From Setoptus koraiensis (Eukaryota > Animalia > Arthropoda), in contig CM106586.1 in NCBI GenBank assembly GCA_048013815.1, forward strand, positions 1,984,001 to 2,047,900: a DNA stretch of 63,900 bases, written 5' to 3'. The translations under genes and the position numbers were made by a program. How positions within the stretch are numbered: the stretch's first letter is position 1; each line of letters opens with the position of its first letter. The notes under the pieces were generated by a model. It saw only the letters and a program-made list of their open reading frames with translations, did not search any database and was not told the origin of the DNA. Of the stretch, positions 8,101-63,426 are shown in pieces.

Positions 8101-9936
8101 CAAAATCAGCAATTTCTTCCTGCCCAGGGCATTGGTTACTCACCTTACATCCCGCCATCACCGATGGAACAATCAGATGCAGCAGCTGGCCTCGTGCGAG
8201 CATCGTTATTGAGTTCCTCAACAGGTAACTCGGATGTTGCGTCCAGTAGCAGCCAAGCTGTGGCAAGCGCGAATGACTTGCAGCCAATGAACATTTTAGA
8301 TTCCCCTACATTTAATCCGCGAATGCCATATAATCCATACGACTATTTTAATCCTCAGCTCAACAATTACGCGCCATCTTTCTCTGATTCGAGTTTTGCA
8401 GAAGATCAGGTGAGAGGTTCAATTGAAACATCTTCGTTCGCAAACGAGCAATCCTCTCTCAATCGATTGAAAGTTGATACAGATTATCAGCCTGTTGCAC
8501 AGAATGTCGAATCGAGTTCACCCTCAATAGATAACAAATCTGCTGGTCTTGCTCCAGCGTCCTCTTCAATCTCCGAATTGGGTGGATCAAGCGTCGCATC
8601 CAGCAGTGCTGACATCGTTAGAGCAGCGAATGAATTGCAGCTCGACAACCAGATTGCCGGTGAGCAAGACATTCGACCTCTTATTCCAATGGATCAACAA
8701 TTTCCTTACAATCCATACATGAATATCCCAGATAGTCCCTTTATGCGTGACGTTGATCGACAATTTGAGACTTATAGCAACAACTTTGTCGGAGCTAATG
8801 CAGCATCTACGACCACCTTAGATGATGATCGGATGCAAATTTCATCAACTCCTGCAAGTGCTCCATCGCTTGTCTCAACAGGTTCCTCTTCAGCCTCATC
8901 AGTAGTTGGGAGAAATACTGACCAATGGATCGGTGACAGTGAGAGCGGACTCTCTGATGTCGTTCCTGTCAAAAATGAACAATTGGCAACGAACAGTCTA
9001 TCTGCAGAAAGATCAGCCATTTCACTTCAGACTGATCAGATGCAAATATCTCCAGTTTTGACTAATGGCCACACATCCTCTATCATTAATCTATTGAAAA
9101 ATGATGGAGACTCTCAGTTTGTTGGCATGGGCGCCCGATTGGGCTCGACTGGTTTGATATCGCCTGCAGTTGTCGACGAATCAATTGGTTCTGCCCAAGC
9201 GTCTTCTCTGGGCTCCTTAATGGGTAGCTCAGACGTTGCATCCAGTGCCACTGACATTCCACGAACAACAACTGATGAATCGCAGCTTGCCAACGAAATT
9301 GTTGGTCAGCACGACACTTCCGGTTTTCCTCTTTTCTATCCACAAATACCATACAATCCATACATGAATGGTTATCCCGAATATCCTATGTTTCATGCTT
9401 ATGGCAACAACTTCGCTGGACTCATACCAGCAGAAGATGAGCTTAGAACATCGACGAACATTGAGACCCCAGAAATAGTCTCATCTGCGAGCCAGGCAAC
9501 TATTCCAGCTCTAAGCTTATCTGGTAGCTCAGACACCGCTAGCTTGAAAATTGATGCAGGCTCTCGGGCTCTTGTCACCGGGCCAAGCTCGACTGGTATT
9601 TTGTCACCAGCTGAAGGCAGCAATTTGGCTCAATCGTCCTCATTGAGCTCCTCATTGGGTAGATCAGATCTTGCATCCAGTGCAACTGACATTCCAAGAA
9701 CAACTACCGATGAATCGCAGCTTGCCAACGAAATTGTTGGTCAGCAGGACACTTTCGGTTTTCCTCTTTTCTATCCACAAATACCATACAATCCATACGT
9801 GACTCAGTATCCCGATTATCCTCAGTTTGGTGCTTCTGGCGACAATTTGGCCCAATTCACTGCACCAGAGAATGAGCTGAGAACATCGACGAATATTGGG
9901 GCGCAAGAAAGAGTCTTACATGCGAGTCAGGCAACT
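2885..9936 (+). repeat. Intragenic duplication: 2885..3517 repeated at 9304..9936
   Basis: Collinear, near-identical 633-bp blocks at a constant offset of 6419. Confidence 0.9.
3785..8388 (+). repeat. Intragenic duplication: 3785..5134 repeated at 7156..8388
   Basis: Aligned by eye: near-identical at offsets 3371, 3389 and 3254, with an 18-nt insertion in copy 2 (7903-7920) and a ~135-nt segment present only in copy 1. Confidence 0.95.
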
Positions 9937-12900
9937 GCTCCAACTCCTATTTTATCAGGTAGCTTAGAGCCTGGATCTAGCATTGCTAGATTGAAAAACG
10001 CTGCAGACTCTCAGGATATTGCCATGAGTACCGAATCGATATCCACCGGTATGCTATCACCTGCAAAGGCTGATAAGGCTCTTGCTGCAAACTCCCAGGC
10101 TCTTGACATGGTTGTCGGCTTGAGCTCGAATGATCTTGCTCAAGTGCTTCCACTGAGCTCCTCTTTGGGCAGCTCAGACGTTGCGTCTGTCTCTAACGAT
10201 ATTTCGAGTGGAACAACCAATGACTTTCAGTTCGCCGACCAGATTGCTGGTCAGCAAGACACTTCCGGTTTTCCTCTTTTCTATCCACAAATACCTTACA
10301 ATCCATACATGACTCAGTATCCCGATTATCCTCAGTTTGGTGCTTCTGGCGACAATTTGGCTCAATTCACAGCACCAGAAAATGAGCTGAGAACATCGAC
10401 GAAATTTGAGGCCCCAGGAATAGTCTTATCTGCGAGTCAGGCAACTGTTCCTGCTCTAAGTTCATCTGGTAGCTCAGAGGCTGTATCCAGCGCCTCCAGT
10501 TCGAAAATTGATGCAGACTCTCAGGTTCTTGCCAAGGGCACCGGATCAAGCTTGGCTGGTACGTTTCAGATAGATGCAGACTCCGAGATTCTCGCTAAGA
10601 CTGGATCCAGCTTGAATGTTTTGTCGTTACCAGCGAACATCGTAAAATCGGCTGGTTTCGCTCGAGCGTCTTCTCTGAGCTCCTCATCTGGTAGCTCAGA
10701 CGTTGCAGCCTTCACAACTGACATTTCGGGTAATTCCAATGAATTGCGGATTTCTGAACAGATTGCTGATCGGGACACTTCAGGTTTTGCTCCTTTACAC
10801 CCACGAATTCCATACAATCCATTCGATAATTTTTATCCTCAGCCCAGCAATTACGCGCCCTCTTTCGCTGATTCGAGTTTTGCAGAAGATCAGCTGAGAC
10901 GTTCAGCACAAACATCTCCATTCGGAGACGAGCAATCCTCTCTCAAAAGTGTCAAGAATCATTTGAAAGTTGATGCAGATTATCAGCCTGTTGCACAGAA
11001 TGTCGGATTGAGCTTCACTAGAGCATTGTCACCTGCGAAATTCATGGAATCAAATGATTTTGCTCAAGCATCTTCGTCAATCTCCGCATTAGATAGCTCA
11101 GACGCAGCATCTAGCATCTCTAACTCCGTGCTGGATGCATCCAATGAATTGCAGCTCGGCAACAAGTTTGCCGGTGAGCAAGACATTCGACCTTTTATTC
11201 CAATGGATCAACAATTTCCTTACAATCCATACATGAATATCCCAAATAGCCCCTTTATGCGTGATGTTGATCGACAATTTGAGACTTTTAGCAACAATTT
11301 AGTCGGAGCCAACACAGAACCTTCTTCTGCAGCCTTCGAAAATAGTCAGTTGCAAAGTTCATCCAATTTAGCAAGGGCTTCATCGGCTGCCATGACAGAT
11401 TTCTCTGTAACCTCTCCAGCGATTACGAGCAATGCTGCCGATTTTATTGGCAACAGTGAGAGCGGACTCTCTGATGTCGTTCCTGTCAAAAATGAACAAT
11501 TGGCAACGAACAGTCTATCTGCAGAGAGATCAGCCATTTCACTTCAGACTGATCAGAGTCTAATATCTCCATCTGTCACCATTGGCTATCCACCTGCGAA
11601 TACTGTGAGTTATCAATTTGGAGTCGATGCAGACTTCAATGCTGCAGCCCACAACACCGAATTAATTTCATCTTCATCAGACGAAAAATCGGCTGGTTTG
11701 GCTCAAGCATACTCTCCGATTTCCGCATCGGAAAGTGCCAGCATCACTGACATTTCGAAAGGAGCCACCGATGAATTGCATCTTGGCAACCAGATTGTCG
11801 GTCTGCAAGACATTTCCGATTTTCCTCAATTCAATCCACAAATGACATACAATCCATTCATAAATATAGCACCTAGTCCATTCATGAATAATGTTGACCA
11901 GCAATTTGGGGCTTTCAGCAACAATCTAAACCAATTTAGAGCTGAAACGGATCAACTGAAATCGAGTACTTCAGCAACCTCATCAGACGTCGCAGCAAGT
12001 GAATCGGGAGCTTCAAACTTTGCCGATGTATCTGCGAAAGCTGCAGCCGTAACCCCGAAACTTATATCCCTTCAAGAGAGAGCAATGAGTGATGGCCAGC
12101 TTCCAGTGATAAGCGATCGCATCGAGGCCAATGTCGGGCATTTGAGCCGAGACCAATCTGAAATGCTTGCTGCTGACGGTAACATCCTGCCGAACATCGA
12201 TCCCTTCTTGCAATTGAGGCCAGTTATGGAGCCATCAGTCTATTACAGTAATAGTAGAATGGCTCCTGAGCCGGTTCTTAGCGCTGCCAGCAACGAACAA
12301 TCGGCAATGAACGGTTTATCTGCACCGATCTCAAATGATATAGTACATGATGATCAGATGCAAATATCGCCAATTGCCACTAATGGTTATTCCTTGAATA
12401 CTGTCGGTAATCAGTTGAAAATTGATGCAAACTCTCAGGCTTTCGCTGAGAGCATCGGATCGAGCTCGAGTGGTATGTTATCACCAGCTCAAGTCGACGA
12501 ATCAAGTGGTTTTATTCAAGCGTCTCCTCTGAGCTCCTCATTGGGTGGCTCAGACGTTGCATCCATCATCACTGATATTCCGAGAGCAACAACAATTGAA
12601 TTGCAGCTTCCAGATCAGATTGCTAGTCCGCATGATGCTTCGACCTCTCGTCCCTTCGAACCACGAATGCCATACATGACCCATTATCCCGAGTATCCTC
12701 AGCTTGTTGCTTACGGCAACAATGTGGCTGGATTCACTTCAGCAGAGGAAGAACTGCGAGCATCGACGAACATTAGGGCCCCAGAGCGATTTGTATCGGC
12801 AAATCATGCAACAGTTCCATCTGCAAGCTTTTCAGGTAGCTCTGAGGCTATATCTAGCGCCGCTGGGTTGCAAATCGATGCAGACTCCGAGTTTCTCGCA

Positions 12901-14419
12901 AAGACTGGATCGAGCTTGAATGGTTTGTCGTCACCAGCAAACATCGAAACATCGGCTGATTTCGCTCAAGCGTCGTCCCTGGGCCCCTCGACAGTCGTAA
13001 CTCACCTCAATAACATTCCAAGAGAAGCATCTAATGAATTGCAGTTTGTCGACCAGACCGCTGGTCAACAAGATATGTCAGGTTTATTCCACAGGGATTC
13101 TGGATTGCCGTACAATCATTACGCGAATGCCCCGAGTAATCAATTCCTGATGTCTTCTCAAATGATTGAGTCTGATGGTAACTATTTGCCGGCTATCACT
13201 CCGTCCTCACAGACTACTCCAGTTGAGGGGCCATCAATTTATTATAGTAATGATAGGAATGGCCCTGAACCGAGTGCAGCGATGAGCAGCTCTGTCAGTT
13301 CAGACGTCAATCTTTCACCATTATCCTCCCAGCTGGATGTTGCTTCATCTACTTCCGGCAGCACAGGACCCACAGTGGTTAGTGCACCATTGAGTTCAGG
13401 CCCTCTCGAGCGCTTTGATATTCCAAATTTGAATAGTCTATCCACTGTCGAACAAATGTCAATAGATAGGTACTCAAATTCAATGGGGAGTTTGGCTTCG
13501 ATGCGTGATGAAGAAGACCTCTCTATTTCCAACAACTACGCCCTTAGTGGCTCTATGTTGCCATACCGAGAGACTTCGAGCGATGCACAAGCATCCTTTG
13601 ATACTTCGGTTCAAATTCCATCCGATATAGATCACAGATCTGACTCTAACAACAATGCACTGGCTTCGAGTGATCAATTTATGAAACATATTCTAACGAC
13701 TAATGAAGTGAATGAAGAAGATAATTTTATTAGTAATCAGGCCAGTTCTGCAATAAACAATGATCGGGTGTCATTAGAAGAGCTCTCATCTCAGTCTATA
13801 AAGCAACAAGCACCAACACTAGCTTCTGTCACTAACACTAACCCCATGTTTCAATTAATGTCGCCTTTGAGCGACAATAACGATAGAGAAAAGATTACTC
13901 TTAACATTAACAATGACAACAACAACAATTATAACTTAGATAATTATGTTGTGCAAGAAACTAAAAATCACTACTACACACCTGCTATATCAACGGTTGT
14001 AAATGGCATTACAAATGATAATGCCCTTACAACTGCAACCACCACTACTGCAACTACCATAACTACCAAACAACAACCTCACCTAAAAAACCAAAAACTA
14101 CAACAACAACAACGACAAATGCTTCGTGATAAAACCCAAATCGATACCATACATCAATCATCATTAAACCAAAACCGACTACCAACCATGACGTCCGACG
14201 GCACATCCCTCATTCATGATGATCGCCTCTCACTATCGTCGGCACGACCTAATCTCGCCTTGCCATTGAGTCCTATTGAATTGACTTTGTTACAAACATT
14301 GTCGCTTAATAACAACAATGCCGTTCAAAATTCAATGCTACCCACCATTGACAACAACAACAACAACAACTACCGTTACTTTGATCAACAACAACAATCC
14401 GACTTACGCTCCGACACCG

Positions 14420-14468
<49 letters not shown>

Positions 14469-14852
14469 CTACAACTACAACTACAACTACAACTACAATA
14501 TCGCCACCGACCAACAATCGTTGCTATCGAACAACTACAACTATCAAACTTCCCTCTCCCCATCACTCGCTGCTACCCAAAATACTCTCGACACCCCAAA
14601 CATCCTCAACACTGAATCCTCTCCGTTTTCCGTCGCTAATCCCGCGATAAATAATCCCATAAATGAACTCTACTCGCAATCCGCTCTTTCCGACGCCCAT
14701 TCCGCTCTATACTCAACTCCCGAAAATCCTCTGAACATCCCCGACGATCCCGATCCCTTGTACTCTGCAATCGGCAATGAACGGCAATATCGCATAACGC
14801 AACGTGATCAACAAATGCTCGACGCAACGACTCAACTACAACTACAACAACT

Positions 14853-14883
<31 letters not shown>

Positions 14884-17800
14884 CCACTACTACTACTACC
14901 AACGCCGCTATCTAAACTGACTTCAACTTTGACGACTGCAACTGCGACGACACCGACATCACTTCCGACTTCTGCTGCATCCACCTCATCGCAACAACGT
15001 CAAACATCATCATCTATTGACAACCAATTTACACAACAACAATACCAACCAAACTATTTGACGACAACAACAAACGACGCTCTCGTTGCTGACGACTTCA
15101 CAACGGCAAACGGCGCTCAATTTATGCCACAACAACAACAACAACAATCATTTGATCGACTGCTTTACCCAATCAACAATGACTTGTCAACCGCCGCCTC
15201 AACCTCATCGTTGTCATCAATTGACAATCAACAATTATTTGAAACTATTGAAACAGGCTTGAAGAACAGACTCGCCGGTGGCGCTAGTTCGGCCGCCGCC
15301 TCATCTGCAGCTGGCGGCGGTGCGGCCTCATCAGCGGCTAGTTCCAGCTCGTCAGCGGGCGGTTCCGGTTTGGGAGCCGGTCCGCTTGGAGCGGGACTGG
15401 GACTGCTGGGCTCGTTGTCAAGCCCGTTCACTGGCGCACAACAATTGGGAGCGGCTGTTGGTTCGGCAAACGGTGCCACTAACCTGGGCTCGAAACTAAC
15501 AGGCTCAAACATAGGCAATGCTGTCGCTAGTACCTCGGGTGCCTTGACGGGTTCCGTGGGCAATGCGCTCAGTTCGGTGGGCGGAAATCTGGGCACTTTA
15601 ACCGATTTGTTCGTGAGCACTCCGTTGAGCGTCATCAATTCGGTGCCGGGCGCCGTGGCAGACTTTGGCCGTCTTATATCTCGACCGGTGGCCAGTGCCA
15701 TCGGAACGGCCTCGTCCGCGCTCACCAGTGGCACGCCCTCGTACGCGTCGCAACTATCTCACAGCGAATTGTCACAAGGTGCCCTGGCCAATGTCGCAAG
15801 TAGAAGCCTAGTCGAGCCTATAACCACTCTGGGCGGACTACAAACCGGCGGCTCGGGTGCCGCTTCGTCGGCATCGTCGGCCTCGTCCTCTTCGGCGGGC
15901 GGAGGCGCGGCGTCATCATCGGCGGCCTCGGCGTCATCAGGATCCTCGGGCGGCGGCGGCGGCCTGGGCATCATTGGCGGCCTGACCGGCCTGGGTGGTG
16001 TTGGCGGACTATTGACGGGCGGAGCGGGAATTGGCGGTGGCCAGACCAAACAGACCAGTACCACTACAACATCAACAAACAACGGGCTACTGGGTGGCTC
16101 TCAGCAAACAACTAGAACAACCACACAACAATCGTCTGACAACGGCGGCGGATTGGGTATAATGGGCGGCTACGGCGGCGTAGGAGGAGGCTCGTCGTCC
16201 GCCTCATCGGCCACATCGTCATCATCTGGATCATCGGGTAGTCCGCTTTTGGGCGCCGGAGTGGGTGGCGGCTCGTCATCATCAGCGGCATCGTCGTCAG
16301 CAGCGTCAGGCAACAGTGGCGGTATAGGACTTGGTCTGGGCTTGGGCGGATACAGACCAGGCTTCGGGCCGGGACCCGTGATCTACGGGGGCGGCCTCAG
16401 GGGTGGCGCCTCATCGTCTTCGGCAGCAGCGTCATCATCGTCAGCAAGCGGCGGCTCGGGTGTACTGGGCGGCTTAGGCGGCGGTTCATCAGCTAGTTCG
16501 GCGGCATCGTCGTCTTCGAGCGGCGGCATTGGCGGTGTCGGCCTTGGGGGCAGATATTTAGGCGGTGGCTACGGAATGGGCGTGGGATCAGTATTAAATG
16601 AGGGGAGTGCAGTCGGGCAGCTAGCAATGATGGACGGTAGAGCCGCAATGTATAATAATCTTGGTCGTCGTCACTACTATCTAGATGCAACAGGCGGATA
16701 CGGAGGATTGGCACAACAACAATCGGCGGCGGCCTCGTCGTCGTCGGCGTCGTCGGCGTCGTCAGCTGCGGGCGGCGGCCTAGGCCTGGGCGGGGGCGCC
16801 AGCTCGGCAGCCTCAACAACATCCACTTCTACAACATCAGTGGGCGGTGGCGGACTCGTAGCGGGCCGCCCGATAGGCTACCCGTTGGTGGGCGGCGGCG
16901 GCTTAACGAGCGGTCTGGCCAGTGGTCTGGCGGGAGCGGGCGCTCTCACCGGTTCGCTTATAAACTCTGCTGGCGCTGCGGCCTCAACGGCCGCGGCCGC
17001 ATCAACGGCAACGGCGAGTAACGTGGCGACCGGCGGTCTCGTGGGTGCAGGCGGTGTGATGAACAACGTCGGACTAATGGCTTCCGGTGCGGCTGGTGCA
17101 TTGAGTGGTGGATTGGGATTGAATGGAGCGGCTGGTTTATATGGTGGTGGTTTAGGAGGATACGGACCAGGAATGGGCGGATACGGACCGGGAGCAATGG
17201 GACTGGCGGCGGGTTCGGCGCTTGGCGCGCGCGGATACGGGCCTTTTGCTGGGGTTGGTTCAATGATTAATCCTCTTAAATCTGATCTAAATGAACAATA
17301 TTTGTCACGAGAGGCACAGTTAGCGGGCAATTATGCCAGTCAGGCAAACATTAAAGCTAGCATCAATAACAACAGAGCGGCCATAACGGGTTATGTCGGT
17401 GACAATTTGCGCGCCCACGTGTCCGATGTCAAGGCGGCCGAGGCAAATGCCCTGGCGGACGTGGCACAATCGAACGCTCTGGTAGAGCAAACAGCAAACA
17501 CGTTCAAGCAAGTGGGTCAATTAGCCGGCCAGGCAACAATAGCGGGCGCGGCGGCGGGTCTGGCGGGCGACGTGAGTCGCATTGGCGCGGCAACAGGCAG
17601 CGGACCGGCAACCATACCCGCAACATTGTCCGCAATGGGTCCCGGTATGATAGCGGGCGACGCGCTTGCAAACAATGCTCAAGATTACGCAATAGCTGGC
17701 AAAGAAATGGAACGTAGCACCGCCAACAATGTGGCCAATGCCGCCCTGGCCGGAAACGCCTACAGGGCGGCCAAGCTTGCGTCGGCCCGGGACAGTGTCA

Positions 17801-19080
17801 ATGTTGCGGGTACCATAAACAATGCGGCCACTATTAGCGACGCGGCTATTGCAACTCACAATGCGGCCAGCAAGGCAGAGGACGCTCTATTGGGCAGCGA
17901 GGTGGCCATGGACACTGCGGGCACTGTCTTTGATTCGGATGGCGCCTTCATACCCGACACCAAATACTCGCTGTTGCGTTCATTGCCCTACGGCAAGCTC
18001 ACCATGAGAAACATCTTGCCGCGCCCCTTGTCCGTGCCCAGTGCCCTGTTGCCCGACACATGGCTGAATGGTCGGCCCATAAACTATGGTCTGTCGCCCA
18101 TAAACAACTACGGCGGCTTGTACGGTTTCGGCAATCAATTCACAGCCGGCAGCGGTCTCAATCCCGGAGCGCCTCTTCCGCCCGGCCCGTGGTCTCCCGA
18201 GCTGCTGGGCTATCCGGCGGTGGGCGCCTTCTGGGGCGCAAATCCAATTTTGGGCGCACCCGGATTGGGCAGCGGACTGGGCACAAGTTTGGGCGCGGGT
18301 TTGGGAGCCGGTTTGCCGTTTTATGGTGCCGGTCCCGAGTCGACACTATTGGGGGCGGCACAATTGGCCTCATTTCCATTGGCCGCGGCACAACAATTGG
18401 CCTCTAGCGACCTGCAGGCACTGGGCTCTGTGTCGGCCAGCTTGGGCGGCCTAGTTCACCAGGGCGGAAATGGCATGCTATTGACGAGCACAACAACAGG
18501 CTCATCGATTATACCCGCCAGCGATACCGCCACCACATACCCGATTGGCTCAGCTTTAGTTATTGAACCCCGTGATTCATATTTTCAAGATTATCTAGAC
18601 GAGGCTACATCTCGTAAAAATTATAATGATGACGGCGACAATAATTCAATGAGAAACATAAATGCAGCTCGCCTAGGTAGCTCTCTGCCGGCGCCTTATT
18701 ATTATTCGCCACCACCATCCTATCCAATTATTAATCCAACACCATTCATTCAATCACCACTCATCCAACCAATAGCGTCGTTAGGTTCTGCTGCCACATC
18801 ATCAACAGCTGAATCGGCTAGCAGCGCCTCTAGTAGCGCAAGTAGCAGCTCAACAACATCCACTACCGCATCAACAAGCTCCAATGCCGGCGCTGGACTC
18901 TTAGGTGGTGTGTCGCCTTTCGGCGCAATGGGCCCCGCTATAGGTGGCGCTGGTGCTAGCACCACAAGCACAACCACCACTACGTCTAGTTCGGCCGGTG
19001 GAGCAGGTGGCGCTGGTGGAGCAAGTTCAGCGGCTAGTTCAGCTAGTTCGGCCAGTTCAGCCGGTTCAAGCATGGTCTAG
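5134..19080 (+). CDS. Main/C-terminal part of the giant protein: Tyr/Pro repeat region, Asn/Gln/Thr linker, Gly/Ala/Ser fibroin-like region and Ala-rich/Pro-Gly C-terminal region
   Basis: A 4,643-aa stop-free ORF (ATG 5149). The frame opens at 5134 with YPEYP-MFHAYG, the same motif seen in the upstream ORF, and it shares near-identical nucleotide blocks with that ORF. AATAAA follows at 19274. Confidence 0.85.
6472..11522 (+). repeat. Intragenic duplication: 6472..6851 repeated at 11143..11522
   Basis: Collinear, near-identical 380-bp blocks at a constant offset of 4671. Confidence 0.9.
14422..14499 (+). repeat. Coding microsatellite (AAC)16 followed by (TACAAC)5, giving N16-(YN)5
   Basis: Read directly from the sequence. 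Confidence 0.95.
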
Positions 19081-52993: not shown

Positions 52994-53903
52994 TGGTTGT
53001 TGTAGCGATTAGGTCCCCACTCAGATCTTGATGAAACTCCTGGTGCGGGTCCCCCTTGACCCTAATAGGATGGAAAAAGTGGTCCGGAAGTGCGGAAACT
53101 TCCGGTTCCGGTTTTACAAAAAGTTGAAGCTAGAGCTCCAAGATTCACCATAGAGACGTTTCAAGCTACGCTGAACACGATGACATAATTTTCAGCTCTG
53201 TGCGACTTCCGGTTTTCGAGATATAGAGATATTACTAGGGTTAGAAGACCGGAAGTGACCAAATTATTGCTTCGCTGCGCTCGGGGATGCACATGCGGTG
53301 TGTCTGAGAACTCGGCCTGCGGCCTCGTATTCTGGAGGCCGTCACATCTCCGTCGTCGCTCCCGCGACGACTGCGTGCGACGGAAACCCTTCGGGTAGAG
53401 TTGATGAGCGCTTCGGGTATCGGGCTGCGCCCTCTACCCTCCGCTCACATGACTGCAATCCATGCACAGATGTATGGAGAAAGACGAAAAAAACCGACAA
53501 AAAATGAAAACAAATGGGACAAGAGGATATGGATAATTATTTTATTTTTATTATATCAATGTGATGACTGATATATGACCCAATACATGGTGTTGCTCAC
53601 TCTATGCACAGAATGGGTCCGCTGACCGCATCCGCACAGACCCGGCCACACCTCTTAATCAAATAAACCTTGATATCTCTTAAACCGGAAGTGATGGGAG
53701 ATCGATTTTGATTTCATCATTCTCCGCTAGGTGTCATCTACTAGATTCTGAAATTTCAAAGCTCTATCTTGATATTTTTGTATTTCCGGAACCGGAAGTT
53801 TCCGCACTTCCGGACCACTCAACTCGTAATACAGGGCCCCTACGGGGCCCATGTGTGAAGTTTCATCGAATTCTGAGTGGGGACCTAATCGCTACAACAC
53901 CCA
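52994..53903. mobile_element. Non-autonomous foldback DNA transposon (~910 bp)
   Basis: A 28-bp perfect TIR core (52998-53025 / 53872-53899) extends imperfectly to ~41-45 bp. A 34-bp perfect subterminal inverted repeat lies at 53078-53111 / 53786-53819, with further symmetric ACTTCCGG/CCGGAAGT motifs. Confidence 0.85.
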
Positions 53904-54095
53904 TTCAATTTGTAAACAGCAAGTATTATCGCATGCTAATTTTTACTAGTTAGCGTCTCAGCCTTCACTGTATAATTGTTTCCTAATGACTCCGCCTTCT
54001 AGCTTTCCCTGTACTAACAAACTAGATAAATTTAGAACGATGAAACCTACGAGAAGCTTCCCGACGCCTTCGCTCTACTAATTTTTTCTAGAAAA

Positions 54096-55110
54096 ACAAG
54101 TTATACTGATTATACCAGTATAAGAGCGCTTAATTTTTCCGGTGAATGATCTTAGAGGTTTGGACAGTTTATAAAGTAGTGAAAAGTGCTAGCTGCCTCT
54201 AGGAAGTTTCAAGAATTTATCCTGGTGAGAACAGTTTTAAAAATTGCACATACTGTGGAGGCACATGTCCTCAATGATGGCCGATACCGCCAATACTAGA
54301 AACAGAAAATTGATTAGACTCGCACAGATTATGTATTAGACAGTGCTAGCTGTCTCTAGGAAGTTTCAAGAATTGATCCTGGTGAGAACAGTTTCGAAAA
54401 TGCACGGTACTGTATGGGCATATCTGATCAGATATCACAAACATTGTATGAGCTCACATGATCCGGGATGGCAATTAAGCTGTAGCTTACTGTGTATTAG
54501 GGGGTGGAGCCACTTAAGTCTCAAACTAGTGTGTAGCCCACCGTGTGCTGAGAAGTTGGAGTGACTTAATTCTCAAACTAGTGTGTAGCTTACTGTGTGC
54601 TAGGGAGTAATGACTCAAGTCTCGAACTAATGTGTAGCTTAATGTGTGCAAGGGAGGAAGAGTGACTTAAGCCCCGGTCCACCTCCTCACTATACATGAG
54701 CCCGAGACTCAAAATTCAATCCACCTCCCTAGTAAATGTGTGTTTGGGAGGTGGACGAACTTTCGAATCTCAAGCTTGAGTGTACCTCCCACCTCCCAAG
54801 CACATTTCAGCCTACACACTCACTTAGCACTAATTATACTGGAGTTAATGTATGCAAACACACAGCGCGTGACTCTCAAGATCAAAACTGTGAATATCCA
54901 CAAATGAATCGGTACGTGAATATTCACTGGCATACAAAGTCTGAGTGTTCACAAGCACACAGCGCGTGAATCACCATAGCACAATTGGTGAATATCCTGT
55001 GAAATGCACAAATTTGGTATCCACCATCATACCGTGCGTGGATATCATGCGTGATTTATAGGATCCAACAACACTACATCCTAAGCCCTTAATTGAAATT
55101 AAGCGCTAGA
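54096..55110 (-). mobile_element. Helentron-associated non-autonomous element (HINE, DINE-1-like), copy A
   Basis: 13-bp subterminal inverted repeats AGCGCTTAATTTT (54125-54137) and GAAATTAAGCGCT (55095-55107). The 5' subTIR has an adjacent inverted partner (AGCCCTTAATT, 55084-55094). A 3' stem-loop TTATACTG-N7-CAGTATAA (54101-54123) is followed by a T-run on the minus strand. Internal 157-bp and ~50-bp tandem repeats. Confidence 0.8.
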
Positions 55111-55112
55111 AA

Positions 55113-56375
55113 TTAATGACAATCGAGATATGGATAACGAACCGCCAAGCATTGATGATACGTAACCATAAGAAAACGTAAATGCCCAAACCGGCATAAA
55201 CGTAGACGGTAACAACAATCAAGGCATAGGCAATGTCATTGAAGCGGCTAGTCAGCGATTAAATCAAGATGATTTAACACGCAAATGTAATGAAATACGA
55301 GAACGAAATCGTAGATGTAAATCAAAGAAAGTAAGAGACAGACAAGAAAGGGGCCATAAACATGCCCGCTTCTGGGACAAAAGATTGCAACAGTGTAAGA
55401 ACAAGTTCATAACTGTTAAGATCAAGTACAAGAAAGAACTTCGGCAATACCGAAGGGAGTTGTTGAAATCCCAGGAGAAGGATGCCCTACAAGAGAGTTA
55501 CATGGTACAAAGAGCTGACGAAGTCAGACGTGCAGAATGTATATACAAACGGGAACTCGAAGAGACCCGTACGTGAAAATTCAGAGATAAATGCGACATT
55601 AGAGAAAACTCTAACGCATTTAATCAGGTATATAAAATTGTATTTAACAAATACAATAGAGAGACAGCTCTGACTAATATCATTCATCCGACTAAAGGTA
55701 TGCTTACCAAGCCGGATGAAATCACGCAACATATCATGGAAACTAGTTTTGCTGATGACGTCATAGAAGAAGATACACCTGAGCAAAGCGAACGTAGGAA
55801 ACGCGTCAACGATCTTGACGAGATTGAATACATTCGCTGGCAAGATGATATAGACAGACCATTAGGCCTGGTGACGTTAAACAATCCAGTCATACATAAT
55901 GTAGACGGAAGCCAATATGAACATATTAATGATCTAGGAGACCCTCTTGGACCACCAACACTTGAAGAAGTTACAAGTGCCATAATGAGATCTTCTAGTG
56001 GCAAAGCCCCTGGTCAAGATGGCATCATGACTGAAATTGTCAAGTATCAAAAAGAGACTATCGCTCCCATCATGAGAGTGATAATCGAGAAGAGCTTAAT
56101 CATTGGTTACTTCCCCACACAATGGAAGAGAGCCAATGTAGTCATGATACCGAAGGCTAACAAAAGCCAGCAATATGCAAATGGTTGGAGGCCAATATGT
56201 TTGCTAAACGTATTGGCAAAAATCATGGATAAAATCATGATTGAAAAGATCCTTGACCATGTTGCCAAGTCAGGTAACCTGAATCCCAATCAGTACGGAT
56301 TTTCACCTAGAAAGTCCACTGTACACGCTGTATGGGATGCAGAGCAGACAATTATCAGGAACCGAGATAAACACC
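55113..56375 (+). pseudogene. Degenerate non-LTR retrotransposon (LINE, R1-like by inference) ORF2 fragment: linker plus N-terminal RT, truncated at both ends
   Basis: KAPGQDG, FPTQWKRANVVMIPK, WRPICLLNVLAKIMDK and QYGF..RKST motifs. In-frame stops are present (e.g. TGA at 55574), and homology ends before the RT catalytic motifs at ~56375. Confidence 0.9.
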
Positions 56376-58746
56376 CAAGGGAATGATCCCATTTATACAT
56401 CCGGGTGGTACAGCGCAGCCATAAATGGTCCTAATAGCCATAATGAAGGAAACCCGACGGGCCAGATACTCATCATAGAGTTCGGTCCCAATGTATCCTT
56501 GGGAGACGCGATCGCGCTTTCTCCGGTAAGGCTCGGGCATGCTTTTGTCACCGTCGACACGGACGGGACGGCGACCAGGGTCGGCTTTAGCTTGGCTTGC
56601 GGTGGCCCATATGTGGCCGGCGTGAGCACGGGTGTTGTAAAAGGCAACCCAGTTTTGCCCAACGACTATTATATAATCCAAGTTGGCATTCTTAAATGGG
56701 TGCACTGGTGCAGGTTCGTGGTCCCGGGCTATGGGAGGTGTCCAGTCAGAGGAGCAAACGCCGAACCGGGCCAAGCTGTCTCCTTTGAGGGTACGACAAC
56801 GTGTCCCGAGGTCATAATAGTGAATAAGGGCCTGATACATGAGGATCCTGTGGGTCCTGGAACCATTGAAAGGGAATCGGGATATCTCAAGAGGCATGTT
56901 TTGGATAGGAAAAACAAGATAATGGGGACGATCTTGGTGTCCTACGGGCTCCACCATGCGGCGCAAAGGCTGATTGAGAGATCGATAGCCGAACCAGTCA
57001 AGCTTTGCTGGCGGCTGGCATATCCTAAGGTCAGTTATAACCTGACGTGTAAGCAGAAAACAGCGTGGGGCACAGCCTGGAAAATAGACGGAAAGCTGAC
57101 CGTCGATAACTATGGGGTCCGTTTTGCGAGGCTCAGGGTAAGTATAGGGATCCGAGAGAAAAATTCGAGCGGCCGGTCTGGCGTAGGTTGGATGACAAGT
57201 CAGAGAGGTAGAACTCTGAGTAGTAACCGGGACAGAAAGAGCGACCTAGAAAACATAGGTAAAGGAAGAGATCGTGTAAAAGATTTATTATTATTGATGT
57301 TGCGGAGATTGGTCCGGCAGGATACTGCGGACAGCTCTTTCACGCTCGACACAATTCTGGCAGTCTGCCTCATAGGAGGTAAGATGGTTGCAGCCGAATC
57401 CTATGGTGTTGAACAATTGACTCACAGTAGAGGAGGTCTCCGAAGTATTGAGAATGTCACGCGGAGTGAGGGGGCAGTGTCGGCCCGGGTTACAGCAGAC
57501 GTCTCGGCCGGATGAGGCTCGGATGTGGCGTCTCTGACAGGTGTGTTTTCGTCATTTTCGGTGACTTGCGGTTCGTCGGCAACGGCGGACGGCGTGACTG
57601 GTGATTCGGTAGCAGTAATAGGTGGATTGGCCGATGGGTCCTCAGCAGTGATAGGCTGTGGTGCATCAGCATCGGTGCGTGGCCCGGTGGTCGGCTGATC
57701 GGTGATAGCGGGCTGAATAGATGGTGGTGGAGGAATGACCTCTGCCCCGCTGATAATAGGCGAATATGTGATTGCAGGGAGGGTGAAAGCCTGAGTAATA
57801 GGGGGAGGACGAGGGGTCTCGTTGTCGGAGTCGGGATATTCGGAAGCCCGGTTGGACTCGATGGTAGTGTTAATAGATGGGCTAGTTGGGTCGGTGAAGA
57901 ATCGACGCGGCACGCCGGCGGAACTAGGGGTTGGAGGAGCCGTGGTTACAGGGGAAGTCTCGGAAGGGGAAGGCCGGGCCGGGGTACTGGTGAGGTTGGC
58001 GGAAGGATTAGGGTTAGGAGGTGCCTCAATAGCAAGAGGGGTGATGTTGACAGTAGTGCGAGATGTGGGGGTGCCGGCAGGAGGAGGGCGCTCGGAGATT
58101 ACAGCAGAATGGACAGGCGGCTGGTTATGAGGAGGACGGGTGTCCTCGGACCTGGGTCGTCGATGATCGGGTGGTGGCAAGGAAGGATGCCCGCTGGAGG
58201 GAGAGAAAGCGGCCTCGGGGTGAGTACAGCGCCAACGGAAGGCCGCAAGCATCCTGGCGAAGTTGTCTGGATCATATCCAGGGGCAAAGTTGAAGCGGGA
58301 TTGCGGCGGATAAATGAATCTGTCGGGAGTATTGTACGCTGGAAAATTCGGGTGAGGGGGCAGGAGCCTTCGCAGCAGCAAAGAGACTCTGGCTTGATGC
58401 CAGGTCCGGAGTTGGGTTGGGGCGCACTGCCCGGTGTAGAAGTACCAGAGTACTTGTACGAACCCGCTGAGAGGGTCCACTGCGGTACATCCATAGAGCT
58501 CGTCTCGGCGGCGTTTGATGAGCTGTTTGAACCTAGCCTGTGCTTCAAGGGCAATTTTGCCGAAGATGTTGGCACGCTCAAGGTAGGCGACCTTGTCCCG
58601 AACCAACAGGTCGGGTCCCTGATTGACGCTGGAAGGAGGGCTAACCCAGGGCCCTATGGGGGGTTCATTCCTATAGCGCCGGCTTCTGGGATGAAGGTCG
58701 AGGTGAATATCGGCTTGATGAAGCTGCGGCAGCCATACCTACATAC
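56355..58746 (-). other. Unidentified GC-rich coding segment truncated at both ends: ORF A (open 58738..57422), probable intron 57425..57246, ORF B (open 57245..~56375)
   Basis: Both frames are open well upstream of the listed TTG starts. There is a GTGAGT donor at 57425 and a polypyrimidine tract plus TAG acceptor at 57246. No recognisable family. Confidence 0.6.
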
Positions 58747-60644
58747 ACAAGTTATACTGATTGTACCAGTATAAGAGCGCTTAATTTTTCCAGTGAACAA
58801 TCTTAAAGGTTTGGACAGTTTATTAAGAAATGATAAGTGCTAGCTGTCTCTAGAAAGTTTTTCAAGAATTTATCCTGGTGAGAACAGTTTCGAAAATTGT
58901 ACATAATGTATGGGCACATGTGATCAGAAATCACATGTATTGAATGAGCTAACATGATCCAGAATTGCCTATAGCGCCAATACTTGAAACAGAAAATCGA
59001 TAAAACTTGCAAAGATCGTGTATGGCACAGTGCTTGCTGTCTCTAGAAAGTTTCGAGAATTTATCCTGGTGAGAACAGTTTCAAAAATAGCACATAATGT
59101 AATACTTGCACGAAATGTTTCGAGCAACATGCACAACACATACACGCAGTATCATCAAAACGGATAGGTGGGAACATGTTCAGAAATTGATGACTATACA
59201 TGAAATCCGTAATCCGAAATTTTTCTCTGTCTCGAAAAAGACCTATTGATGGCTGATCATACTTGCACAGAATGTTGCGAGTAACATGTAAAACACACAC
59301 ACGAAGTATTATCAAAACGGATAGGTGGGAACATGTTCAGAAATCGATGACTATACATGACATCCGTCATCCGAAATTTCTCTATGTCTCGAAAACGACC
59401 AATTGATTTCTGATCATACATGCACAGAATGTAGCGAGCAACATGTACAACACACACACGCAGTATCATCAAAACGGATAGGTGGGAACATGTTCAAATA
59501 TCACGATATTCACATGTGATCAGAAATCAGATGTATTGAATGAGCTTACATGATCTAGAATTGCCTATAGCGCCAATACTAGAAACAGAAAATTGATAAG
59601 ACTTGCACAGATCGTGTATGGCACAGTGCTTGCTGTCTCTAGAAAGTTTCAAGAATTTATCCTGGTGAGAACAGTTTCGAAAATCGCACATAATGTATGG
59701 GCACATGTGATCAGAAATCACATGTATTGAATGAGCTAACATGATCCAGAATTGCCTATAGCGCCAATACTAGAAACAGAAAATTGATAAGACTTGCACA
59801 GATCGTGTATGGCACAGTGCTTGCTGTCTCTAGAAAGTTTCAAGAATTTATCCTGGTGAGAACAGTTTCGAAAATCGCACATAATGTAGAGACACATGTG
59901 CCACAATATGGCCTATAGCGCCAATACTAGAAACAGAAAATTGATAAGACTTGCACAGATCGTGTATAGCATCGATCCACCTCCTCACAATACATTAACC
60001 TCTGCATGAGCCCGAGACTTAAAATTCAATCCACCTCCCTGAAATGTGTGTTTGGGAGGTGGACGAACCTTCGAGTCTCACACTTGTATGTAGGTTGTTG
60101 CATGCTCAGGAGGTGAACTTATTGTTTAAGCTGAAGCTAGTCCACCTCCCAAGCATGAGTCACCCCACGCTATTCGGAGTAGCTAAACCTATCTCGTTTT
60201 AGCCCCGGTCCACCTCCTCACTATACATGAGCCCGAGACTCAAAATTCAATCCACCTCCTTAGTAAATGTGTGTTTGGGAGGTGGACGAATTTTCGAGTC
60301 TTAAGCTTGAGTGTACCTCCCACCTCCCAAGCACATTTCAACCTACACACTCACTTGGCACTAATTATACTAGAGCTAATGTATGCAAACACACAGCGCG
60401 TGACTCTCAAGATCAAAACTGTGAATATCCACAAATAAATCGGTACGTGAATATTCACTGGCATACAAAGTCTGAGTATTCACAAGCACACAGCGCGTGA
60501 ATCACCATAGCACAATTGGTGAATATCCTGTGAGATGCACGAATTTAGTATCCACCATCATACCGTGCGTGGATATTCATGCGTGATTTATAGGATCCAA
60601 CAACACTACATCATAAGCCCTTAATTAAAATTAAGCGCTAAAAA
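58747..60644 (-). mobile_element. Helentron-associated non-autonomous element (HINE, DINE-1-like), copy B
   Basis: Same termini as copy A: stem-loop at 58752-58774, subTIRs at 58776-58788 and 60627-60639, inverted partner at 60616-60626. 60201-60640 is nearly identical to 54670-55108, and the central tandem array is expanded. Confidence 0.8.
58838..59960. repeat. Tandem array of 191-bp units (plus ~155-bp units) inside HINE copy B
   Basis: The anchor GTGCT(A/T)GCTGTCTCTAG occurs at 58838/59029 and 59626/59817 (period 191). A second unit containing ATCAAAACGGATAGGTGGGAACATGTTC occurs three times between 59130 and 59500. Confidence 0.9.
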
Positions 60645-60991: not shown

Positions 60992-61194
60992 TGTTGGAAT
61001 ATGAACTGTACTGAGTACGTACAGTAACACATGAAGTACCATTTATTACAAGCTATACATTATATATATATTGATTAGTGTATTGGTATACACTTTTGTT
61101 TGTACATTGCTCATACATTGCTTATACATTGCTTATACATTGCTTATTCGCTGTTTACTGCACTTGCGCATACCGACACTACTGTTTTCTAACA
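60992..61194 (-). mobile_element. 3' LTR (203 bp) of an env-bearing copia element
   Basis: On the minus strand it reads TGTTAG...CCAACA, preceded by the polypurine tract CTGAGTGGGAG (61205-61195). It contains AATAAA (61047-61042) and an 11-bp tandem repeat. Confidence 0.9.
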
Positions 61195-61215: not shown

Positions 61216-63360
61216 CTAATTCTCATTATAGCTCTCATAAACCTTTGCTTTACCAAATGATCTCATTGATCTCGAGGCGAAGGATGGCTCTCTTGCGGCT
61301 CCTGCTTGAGATATAATGTCATTGATTGATCTCGGGTTATCATAGATTGCGTCTAACTCGATTAGGCTGTTGACATTGTCCACACGTTCCAGCTTATTTT
61401 TCTTTGCAGCATTGTAATAGCATACCATTCCAATGATTATACTTACCAATATTGCTGCTGCAAAAGCTGTCACTATGACAATCGTCCCTGTCATTTGGAA
61501 TGACACTGTTTTGATCTCCTCACCAGTTACTTTAGCTTTAATACTGTATCTAAAATTGACATGTGATCTGTCACTGCTAAGGATAATGCCACGCAGGATT
61601 GTATTTTTAGGTCGTAAATTAGCTAGTTCTTTGTAGCCTGACAACTCGCTGATTTCGTCTACTGCAAGCTGACCACGATTGCACTGATTCAGGATGGTCT
61701 TGTATGTCGCTACACCACCAAGAATCTCACTATACAAATCTAAGGATGCTAGGATTGCTCTTGGCATGCTGCTAGCAGCATCTTCAACTTCTTGTTGATG
61801 AGTTCTGCTGGTCTGACTTACTTCATTTATCTTACTGATGGTCTCATTTCTAAACTTTTCATTCTGTCTGAACAGTTTCTCCGTTTCTAGCTTAACCTCA
61901 GAGATGAGTTCCTTAGCAGCATCTTGATTAGGCAAAATTTCTTCCGACGACAGGAACTTACTAATGACAAAGTTAGTTGCTCCAACTCCAATAGATTTCG
62001 CTATGTCAGTTCCTATGCCTCTTTTTTCTAAATTATGAGCACATCTTCCAATATTGTCTAGTAACGGAGTGAATTTGGTGTGGTATTGTCTGTTACATTC
62101 TTTCAAGAGTTGAGCTTCGACAGTATCACAAAAGCAGCTACATATACCATGCGTTGTGAAGTGAACCGGATGATAATCGGTGTTGTTCGACAACACATTG
62201 CATGGGTTATTGATGTAGACTGTCAACTCAAACACATCGGCGGTTACTCCCACTGTTCCCGCTACAATTAATGATGTTAGTAATAATAGGCTCTTGACTC
62301 CCATCATGTCTCTTAAATTCACAAACTGATTTCTAGCTAACGGTTTGGTTAATATATCCGCTATTTGTCGTGATGTTTCAATATACTTGACTTTGACTTT
62401 CTGTTCTTCTATGGCTACACGAATAAACATATATTTAACATCAATAAGTTTGATCTTTGTATGTATCTGTTGATTAACTATTAGTTTTATCGCACTTTGA
62501 CTATCTAAATATAGATTGATAGGATTTGTCATTTCTCGACCAAGCTCACTTAATAACTGTCTAACCCAAATGAGATTACTACAAGCTAAGCTAGCAGCGA
62601 TGAATTCAGCATTTGTGGTTGACGTTGCCGTTGTCGTTTGCTTTGTTGAACGCCAAACTACTGGTGCTCCATTGAGCATGACAATTATACCACTAGTTGA
62701 CTTCTTCGTATCTAAGTCTCCGGCGAAGTCGGAGTCAGAGTAGGATTCAAAGTGAAAGTTCTCACCCTTATTGTAATGCAATCCTATGTCTGATGTAGCT
62801 TTCAAATATCGGAAGATCCTCTTCACTCCCGCCCAGTGGGATGGCTTGACACAATCAGCATAGCTGGCTAATTTTGACACTGCATAGCTTATGTCTGGTC
62901 TTGTGCCATTGCTTACATAAATGAGGGATCCAATTGCTTCTTTATATGGAACTATAACTTCTTTCTCCACGTGATCTAAGGACAAACCATTTTTGCAATA
63001 CTTTTGGTTGTGCTCCATAGGAGTGGATGCATCCTTAGCGTTGCTTAACTCAAATCTTGCGATCATCTTTCTTATGTAGTAGCGTTGATTGACAATCATG
63101 TCTCGATTTTTTCTGTCTCGATAGATTTCCAATCCAACGAAACAACTCGGATCCATAATGGACACCTCAAATTTCGTCTTGAGGAAGTTGGTTATTTTAT
63201 CCAGCAGTTGGATATTATTGCTACACACTAATCCGTCATCTACGTACAAGACTAATATAAGGGTGATCTTGTCTCTATCATCCTTTCTTACCATGATGCA
63301 ATTATCTTTGTACAACGGCTGCAGCTCAAATGTCTTCAGAAAAGAAACAAACGTACAGTT
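61216..63360 (-). CDS. Ty1/copia pol C-terminal part (RT, RNase H) fused in-frame to an env-like membrane glycoprotein; 5' truncated
   Basis: RT LYVDDGL and PYKEAIGSL.Y....RPDI; RNase H YSDSDFAGD....STSG and ADILTKPL. These are followed without a stop by a hydrophobic signal-like segment, a Cys-rich segment, EKR|GIG, a heptad region and a TM helix. Confidence 0.92.
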   Translation of the reverse strand, partial: NCTFVSFLKTFELQPLYKDNCIMVRKDDRDKITLILVLYVDDGLVCSNNIQLLDKITNFLKTKFEVSIMDPSCFVGLEIYRDRKNRDMIVNQRYYIRKMIARFELSNAKDASTPMEHNQKYCKNGLSLDHVEKEVIVPYKEAIGSLIYVSNGTRPDISYAVSKLASYADCVKPSHWAGVKRIFRYLKATSDIGLHYNKGENFHFESYSDSDFAGDLDTKKSTSGIIVMLNGAPVVWRSTKQTTTATSTTNAEFIAASLACSNLIWVRQLLSELGREMTNPINLYLDSQSAIKLIVNQQIHTKIKLIDVKYMFIRVAIEEQKVKVKYIETSRQIADILTKPLARNQFVNLRDMMGVKSLLLLTSLIVAGTVGVTADVFELTVYINNPCNVLSNNTDYHPVHFTTHGICSCFCDTVEAQLLKECNRQYHTKFTPLLDNIGRCAHNLEKRGIGTDIAKSIGVGATNFVISKFLSSEEILPNQDAAKELISEVKLETEKLFRQNEKFRNETISKINEVSQTSRTHQQEVEDAASSMPRAILASLDLYSEILGGVATYKTILNQCNRGQLAVDEISELSGYKELANLRPKNTILRGIILSSDRSHVNFRYSIKAKVTGEEIKTVSFQMTGTIVIVTAFAAAILVSIIIGMVCYYNAAKKNKLERVDNVNSLIELDAIYDNPRSINDIISQAGAAREPSFASRSMRSFGKAKVYESYNEN

Positions 63361-63361
63361 C

Positions 63362-63426
63362 ACTTCATACGTTACTGAGCTGTTATACACATTCAGTGTT
63401 TACTGGGTACAGTTCATATTCCAACA
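63362..63426 (+). mobile_element. Inverted LTR 3'-end (U5) fragment closing the copia insertion
   Basis: Ends in GTACAGTTCATATTCCAACA, identical to the last 20 nt of the 3' LTR but in the opposite orientation. It is followed by CACAC, which matches CACAC at 60987-60991. Confidence 0.85.

Follow-up and report, generated by a model that had tools for sequence, protein, structure and literature searches.

A 2.36-kb segment lying in a nest of transposable elements in the Setoptus koraiensis genome carries two forward open reading frames on the minus strand (ORF A and ORF B) and, opposite them in codon register, an antisense frame that is open over almost its entire length. The three codons that are all but absent from the forward frames are precisely the ones whose loss would be expected if the antisense frame were kept open. 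This ambigrammatic coding is the most diagnostic feature of the segment and was absent from the original prediction, which had read the forward strand as a virus-like gene with an optional splice. By composition the segment is foreign to the host genome; it was once protein-coding, and the copy examined here is dead. Our preferred reading, held tentatively and at slightly less than an even chance, is that an undescribed virus of the nucleus left this remnant in the genome, a virus whose forward unit was spliced and whose reverse frame was kept open so that it could be translated. A viral origin is likely on the basis of composition, selection pattern and analogy; the searches gave no viral hallmark gene or family match.

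Genomic setting and layout of the segment

The host genome is compact, intron-poor and animal. Across the window, by which we mean the whole 63,900-nt stretch of DNA analysed, several ORFs encode DHX37-like, PEX14-like, RIM-BP-like, homeobox and hnRNP L-like proteins, and a Pfam scan returned RRM and RT matches among the window ORFs. The order within the nest is a HINE-like repeat, a LINE RT fragment, the 2.36-kb segment, a second HINE-like copy and copia remains. By comparison with the structure described in PMC4067079, these repeats appear HINE-like in having short inverted repeats near their ends, a palindrome at the terminus and tandem repeats in the centre. The junction between the LINE and ORF B, near 56380, was bridged by one contig. 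The features are as follows.

54094..55113, plus strand: HINE A, a HINE-like copy in the same orientation as HINE B
55172..56380, plus strand: LINE fragment (start of the RT; RVT_1, E 9e-8), joined to the 3' end of B
56380..58738, plus strand: codon-aligned antisense frame of ~785 codons with two breaks, the frameshift and a single stop; neither end is preserved
57602..57604, plus strand: the single in-register antisense stop (a TCA codon in ORF A)
57476..58738, minus strand: ORF A, 5'-truncated; a ~180-aa helical-looking part, then a Pro/Thr/Ser-rich stretch
57470..57474, minus strand: C5 homopolymer run, the frameshift site of the window copy
57291..57467, minus strand: end of A plus a 44-codon tail that carries C-x-H-x7-C-x2-C, a putative Zn site; stop at 57293-91
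57420..57425, minus strand: candidate donor GTGAGT, phase 0 (chance 1-9%)
57246..57293, minus strand: 48-nt AT-rich spacer with three TAA, AATAAA, a pyrimidine tract and a candidate TAG acceptor
56380..57245, minus strand: ORF B, 3'-truncated by the LINE junction; remote homologue P0001
58747..60645, plus strand: HINE B, a high-copy HINE-like repeat that removes the 5' end of A; contigs with loose ends at 58747

The forward frames lack the codons that would stop the reverse frame

With each part of the segment read in its own frame, TCA, CTA and TTA together occur once in 767 codons (at 57604), against an expectation of ~19 (Poisson 1e-7); the lowest family rate, which is the most conservative choice, still gives 9 (1e-3). 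The deficit was found in the head of A (p 0.02), in its stalk (p 0.05) and in B (p 0.007), and all eight control ORFs were without such depletion. Of 83 TCN and CTN codons, one ended in A; for the remaining four-fold families the figure was 64 of 353 (Fisher p 6e-6). TTA was used 0 times and TTG 7. A-ending codons including GTA, ATA and CCA were used at 18%; GTA and ATA are used normally, and the pattern is therefore not TpA avoidance. CCC, GCG, ACG and GGT were likewise under-used, so codon bias has further sources here. Outside the reading frame, TCA, CTA and TTA occur 108 times in the segment, and the remaining two antisense registers contain normal numbers of stops.

Nowhere else in the window are both strands open for as long as in this segment, with runs of 378 and 296 codons; the next is 121 codons. 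The antisense frame spans A, the tail, the spacer and B with no aligned-frame stop in the spacer, a passage of 16 codons through AT-rich sequence that is weak evidence by itself. It is open without visible amino-acid constraint, and its product opposite A is Gly/Arg-rich. RNA folding was not pervasive: over 9 windows, each 240 nt long, mean z was 0.0 on the minus and -0.9 on the plus strand. This signal may have been weakened by decay once the segment had integrated.

Ambigrammatic narnaviruses all use the codon-aligned reverse frame, according to 10.1101/761890. For narnaviruses with a reverse ORF (rORF), PMC7010960 gives a mean usage of the three codons of 0.0049 at a GC3 of 61%, a level described there as attained by cellular genes only above ~90% GC3; the corresponding values for the segment are 0.0057 and 0.55. 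These figures bear on whether the segment could belong to a small gene family, the host's own or one acquired horizontally, that is biased towards C- and T-ending codons, the antisense frame being a by-product. Its splice signals are host-like, codons other than the three are depleted too, and an aligned antisense frame can open through codon bias, as PMC13262655 reports. The pseudoambigrammatic SalaUV-NL1 has a long aligned reverse ORF, as here, but owes it to a GC3 of over 90% (PMC13262655), and by-product cases generally are described as lying above that value (PMC13262655, PMC7010960). With the much lower GC3 of the segment, the common use of GTA, ATA, CCA and other A-ending codons, frameshifts in the copies and a window copy truncated at both ends, we consider such a gene family quite improbable.

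ORF A probably ends in a Cys/His tail beyond a frameshift

The anatomy outlined in the original prediction, comprising ORF A, the C-run frameshift, the C-x-H-x7-C-x2-C tail, the in-phase donor, the acceptor and ORF B, proved correct at every coordinate. ORF A is open from stop to stop between 58738 and 57422 on the minus strand (438 aa), with its first Met only at 58252, and the helices of its first part appear only in a predicted structure with a pLDDT of 40. A third ORF end, claimed to overlap the start of A, is not supported and is best put down to chance: that frame has only 4 stops in 421 codons, its start lies within the HINE junction, and for this stretch the A frame was preferred by the frame model (2.6 vs -0.9 bits). 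Also at the start of ORF A is a 21-codon AUG frame (58736-58671, minus strand), out of frame with A and probably due to chance. An acceptor considered at 58739, ahead of A, was dropped; the alignment of the diverged copy ends at 58738.

At the C5 run, where one base had been suggested to be missing, both X1 and X3 show a diverged copy with an indel at exactly this position. Contigs identical to the window read through the C5 run with no gap in X1, X2 and X3, and the break in the window copy is therefore real rather than an assembly error. Beyond it, the tail frame finishes ...CNHLTSYEADCQNC...QHQ* at 57293-91, followed by two further TAA and an AATAAA at 57289 that overlaps the stop cluster. 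The C-x-H-x7-C-x2-C motif is the sole one of its kind in the six frames, and third positions in the tail are element-like. When the tail was shuffled 20,000 times, a post hoc test, 15% of the shuffles were open and none was both open and in possession of the motif. A position-specific composition model likewise preferred the tail frame (+3.5 vs -4.2 and -7.9 bits).

A candidate splice would connect ORF A with ORF B

ORF B is open from 57245 to 56355 (296 aa), the final ~8 codons being antisense LINE. It has no Met until residue 97, and homology to P0001 begins by residue 49; because this homology precedes the first Met, B must be reached by splicing or begin in an unusual way. The composition model was indifferent where B begins (-0.6 vs -0.2 and -2.7 bits). 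The GTGAGT at 57425 is the single GT[AG]AG on the minus strand of 56380-58800, and a candidate acceptor, ...TTTTCTAG, ends at 57246, which would give an intron of 180 nt. The tail and ORF B share a common frame, a Ser/Thr-rich linker carries on across the candidate junction, and the spacer, at 27% GC, is similar to host intron ends. In random trials of 100 codons, a phase-0 GTRAGT arose in 1.1% and broader donors in 9.4%, and a chance acceptor of equal strength is present at 57077. P0001 has its own Met 45 residues ahead of the aligned part and its gene may stand alone. An open antisense frame would by itself hold the tail and B in phase, without splicing. Judged from these sequence signals, the splice from 57425 to 57246 is plausible, with a little better than an even chance of being real.

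An AUG frame of 18 codons across the spacer and the start of B (57256-57200, minus strand) was set aside as a route to B. It is probably there by chance, is out of frame with B, and has no obvious slippery site and no indel among those listed below.

If the segment is indeed the remnant of a nuclear virus, protein A would have ended in a small Cys/His tail, putatively metal-binding, with a poly(A) signal at its stop, while splicing would have dropped the tail and reached ORF B, which has no usable AUG. The reverse strand would have been selected for translatability rather than for a particular protein sequence, as in ambigrammatic narnaviruses.

Related copies record selection on the forward frames

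The segment, or part of it, was found in six of eight sequencing runs, none of which is on record as RNA. The contigs comprise window-identical pieces, others that match A and the end of B at 87-91% identity, and a 95-97% variant in B. Depths in X1 were 71 for the LINE-joined contig, 115-151 for window-identical A pieces and 52-57 for diverged pieces, values that fit about three copies, depth not being a copy number. Three indels are listed, each in X1 and X3. Besides that at the C-run, 9 nt are inserted in frame at 58145, and ORF B has lost 8 nt at 56699, a deletion absent in X2 although X2 and X3 are one sample. A contig from X4 covering 57049-57851 has one gap, and X5 and X6 gave thin pieces at a depth of 3-4. 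X7 and X8 contained nearly none of the segment's words, which is no proof of absence. The diverged copy ceases to match at 56380 and at 58738 and continues into other sequence at both points, in a 1370-nt contig that extends ~1.1 kb past 56380 and a 367-nt contig that extends past 58738; since it runs on past them, the window copy is truncated at both ends.

Of the 40 differences to the related copies considered here, which are drawn from 209 sites and from more than one variant, 30 lie in B, where 18 are synonymous (p 2e-4), and 10 lie in A, where 7 are synonymous (p 0.014). Third codon positions of A or B account for 26 of the 40 (p 4e-5). In the forward frames 25 of these 40 were synonymous, compared with 11 in the reverse frame, and none created a stop in either. 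Because divergence is mostly synonymous though copies carry frameshifts, selection probably acted before insertion. At four-fold sites the segment has A at 0.14-0.16 and C at 0.39-0.45, whereas all nine host and TE controls have A at 0.30-0.39 and C at 0.17-0.21; CpG is unbiased (0.8-0.9).

The same differences make it very improbable that the true gene lies on the plus strand, as a single ORF of over 785 codons, with A and B as its shadow. Although the plus frame crosses the spacer in which the minus strand has four stops, more than twice as many differences are synonymous on the minus strand as on the plus, the sole homologue matches minus-strand B, and the product opposite A, Gly/Arg-rich as noted above, is without matches.

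Equally, one may ask whether some uncharacterised transposon or retroelement with an antisense ORF carried the segment as a spliced accessory gene, the copies being old transposed relics. The surrounding nest, the splice signals, the presence of several copies and purifying selection before insertion would all suit such an origin. Against it, the resident LINE and copia genes are host-like in composition and show no reverse-stop avoidance, no transposase or RT match was found, and copy depth is low (50-150, vs tens of thousands for HINE), so that we regard this origin as improbable.

Under the nuclear-virus reading, selection on a replicating agent would have preceded integration, related strains would have integrated more than once, and LINE and HINE events would later have truncated the window copy. 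The earlier suggestion of an endogenous virus-like element thus gains from the foreign composition, purifying selection, frameshifted copies and lack of a host or TE match; the analogy with AAV Rep on which it also drew is without sequence support.

Homologue and fold searches

Among 1.84 billion representatives, ORF B has one remote orphan homologue. This protein, P0001, is a singleton of 364 aa, encoded on a 1773-nt contig and present in Logan only (E 2.5e-8; 28-29% identity over 207 columns), and its local score against B was 166, compared with a shuffle maximum of 60. Nothing significant was returned by Pfam, NCBIfam or PHROGs for A, B, the tail or P0001, and two plus-strand ORFs had no match in Pfam, the one collection used for them. 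The original prediction had named a match to a host gene or known TE as evidence against itself; A, B, the tail and P0001 have no family match. PDB sequence searches gave noise only. Word-seeded searches found no match among 621 candidates for B and none among 304 candidates of 240-767 aa for residues 20-190 of A, and a profile of B and P0001 run among 5604 returned P0001 alone. The ESM Atlas held no usable match for B or the A head, viral contigs held no loci related to B, A or the plus frame, related loci were not found in metagenomes, and Rfam gave nothing real.

Two structure models reached pLDDT values of 40 and 30, with best Foldseek E values of 0.28 and 0.38 and best Z scores of 5.9 and 3.8; four fold searches with such low-confidence models assigned no fold.

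Profile and PDB searches agreed with the earlier statement that no SF3 helicase, RdRp, RT or transposase motif is visible, A being 5'-truncated. No RdRp was found in B, nor in A, for which the homologue search was limited to proteins of 240-767 aa. No Pfam or PDB sequence match to the HUH endonuclease or SF3 helicase of Parvoviridae or CRESS-DNA Rep proteins was obtained for A, B or P0001, and profiles detected no DDE, RT, Helitron Rep or Ulp1/OTU catalytic domain within the 2.36 kb of the window. Two further likenesses found no support: that of the A head to a hepadnavirus core in Pfam and PDB sequence searches, and that of B to a Ulp1-like protease in profile and PDB sequence searches.

Comparison with known systems

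Replacement by splicing of a C-terminal tail with another frame is known from AAV Rep78/68, polyomavirus small and large T and foamy virus Tas/Bet, and in Rep78 and small T the C-terminal tail is Cys-rich. The analogy concerns layout only, as neither an HUH, SF3 helicase or J domain nor any other homology was found in the segment. The reverse ORFs of NEG8 and HBZ lie within about 190-220 codons. In influenza A segment 8 (NEG8), HTLV-1 (HBZ) and HIV-1 (ASP), a nuclear spliced forward unit is paired with a reverse ORF (PMC8781085 for HBZ and ASP), which for ASP is likewise given as within about 190-220 codons (PMC8781085). The segment bears no sequence likeness to any of the three, and composition and hosts differ.

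In its coding the segment works like an ambigrammatic genome. [quoted passage not shown] The reverse ORF is nonetheless described as required for persistence (PMC8316113). Companion Robin/S2 segments are presented as 0.8-1 kb long, with one forward ORF and no database homologues (PMC8155312, PMC8316113, PMC10460169). The segment differs from ambigrammatic narnaviruses in having no RdRp match and no pervasive RNA folding, whereas such folding is reported for narnaviruses in PMC10293807. In place of a single spanning forward ORF, it has two, the second without an AUG, and signals that resemble splice sites; at >2.3 kb it is more than twice as large as the companion segments. The terminal G/C runs and 3' stem-loop of ambigrammatic narnaviruses would fall in the ends that this copy lost at the HINE and LINE junctions. 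We have not filed it as a narnavirus because of the four forward stops, its size, the lack of pervasive folding and the failure to find an RdRp, the test being incomplete for A.

It is nevertheless conceivable, if rather unlikely, that the segment is an endogenised cDNA of a cytoplasmic narnavirus-type ambigrammatic RNA, either a large Robin-like companion or a second ORF preceded by what remains of an RdRp ORF at its 3' end. In that case the splice-like sites would be chance and B would start by a non-AUG codon or reinitiation. The aligned-frame signature, GC3, unbiased CpG and forward-conserved, reverse-relaxed divergence all agree with such an origin, and Robin/S2 segments are, as described, similarly devoid of homologues. 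PMC7010960 reports EVEs related to rORF narnaviruses from assemblies of insects (9 matches). ORF A lacks its 5' end, and its homologues were sought among proteins of 240-767 aa. Several features speak for a different source: known companions have 0.8-1 kb and one forward ORF, whereas here more than 2.3 kb contains four stops between A and B; folding is not pervasive; B is not a piece of an RdRp, given one homologue among 1.84 billion representatives; and the donor, AATAAA and acceptor are ordered as in a nuclear gene.

A nuclear, spliced virus with a translatable reverse frame thus remains our preferred source. A broader proposition, which we hold to be doubtful, is that there are unknown nuclear, spliced arthropod viruses or virus-like mobile elements, outside the narnaviruses, in which an entire multi-gene region, intron included, is translatable on both strands. 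No ambigrammatic DNA virus or transposon appears in the literature searched, although table ST5 of PMC13262655, outside that search, may list non-narnaviral cases; the same source counts about 114 of 221,000 GenBank virus sequences with long opposite-strand overlaps. Why narnaviruses hold the full reverse frame open is presented as unsettled in PMC8316113 and PMC8155312, the candidates being a protein product or ribosome cover. With its two forward ORFs, probable splicing and no RdRp, the segment would, if read correctly, mean that ambigrammatic coding can exist apart from narnaviral RdRp RNAs, and the two ideas could then be tested in another system as well. Orphan viral fossils could also be sought without homology, by scanning at moderate GC3 for frames in which TCA, CTA and TTA are missing.

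Neighbouring features of the window

The LINE RT fragment (55180-56379, plus strand) folds more stably than its shuffles in five of five windows (z -2.2 to -6.7; -4.6 at 55420-55659). On the minus strand, 61216-63399 contains the RT/RNase H end of a copia element (RVT_2) with an in-frame extension of ~350 aa that includes a hydrophobic stretch and is env-type-like. By eye, this piece is flanked by a 20-nt sequence that starts with TG and resembles an LTR end, present in inverted orientation at 60993-61012 and 63407-63426. Between 60710 and 61042 lies an acidic, Ala-rich ORF with a 33-nt tandem repeat and a codon-aligned minus-strand ORF over ~76 codons; depth there resembles that of the window-identical ORF A pieces, a hint of segmental duplication across HINE B. 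At 52994-53903 there is a MITE-like, high-copy element with long inverted arms. Finally, two overlapping giant low-complexity ORFs of 1727 and 4648 aa with long internal repeats occupy 2-19080 (plus strand) and are likely a single gene, split by a frameshift near 5134-5185.
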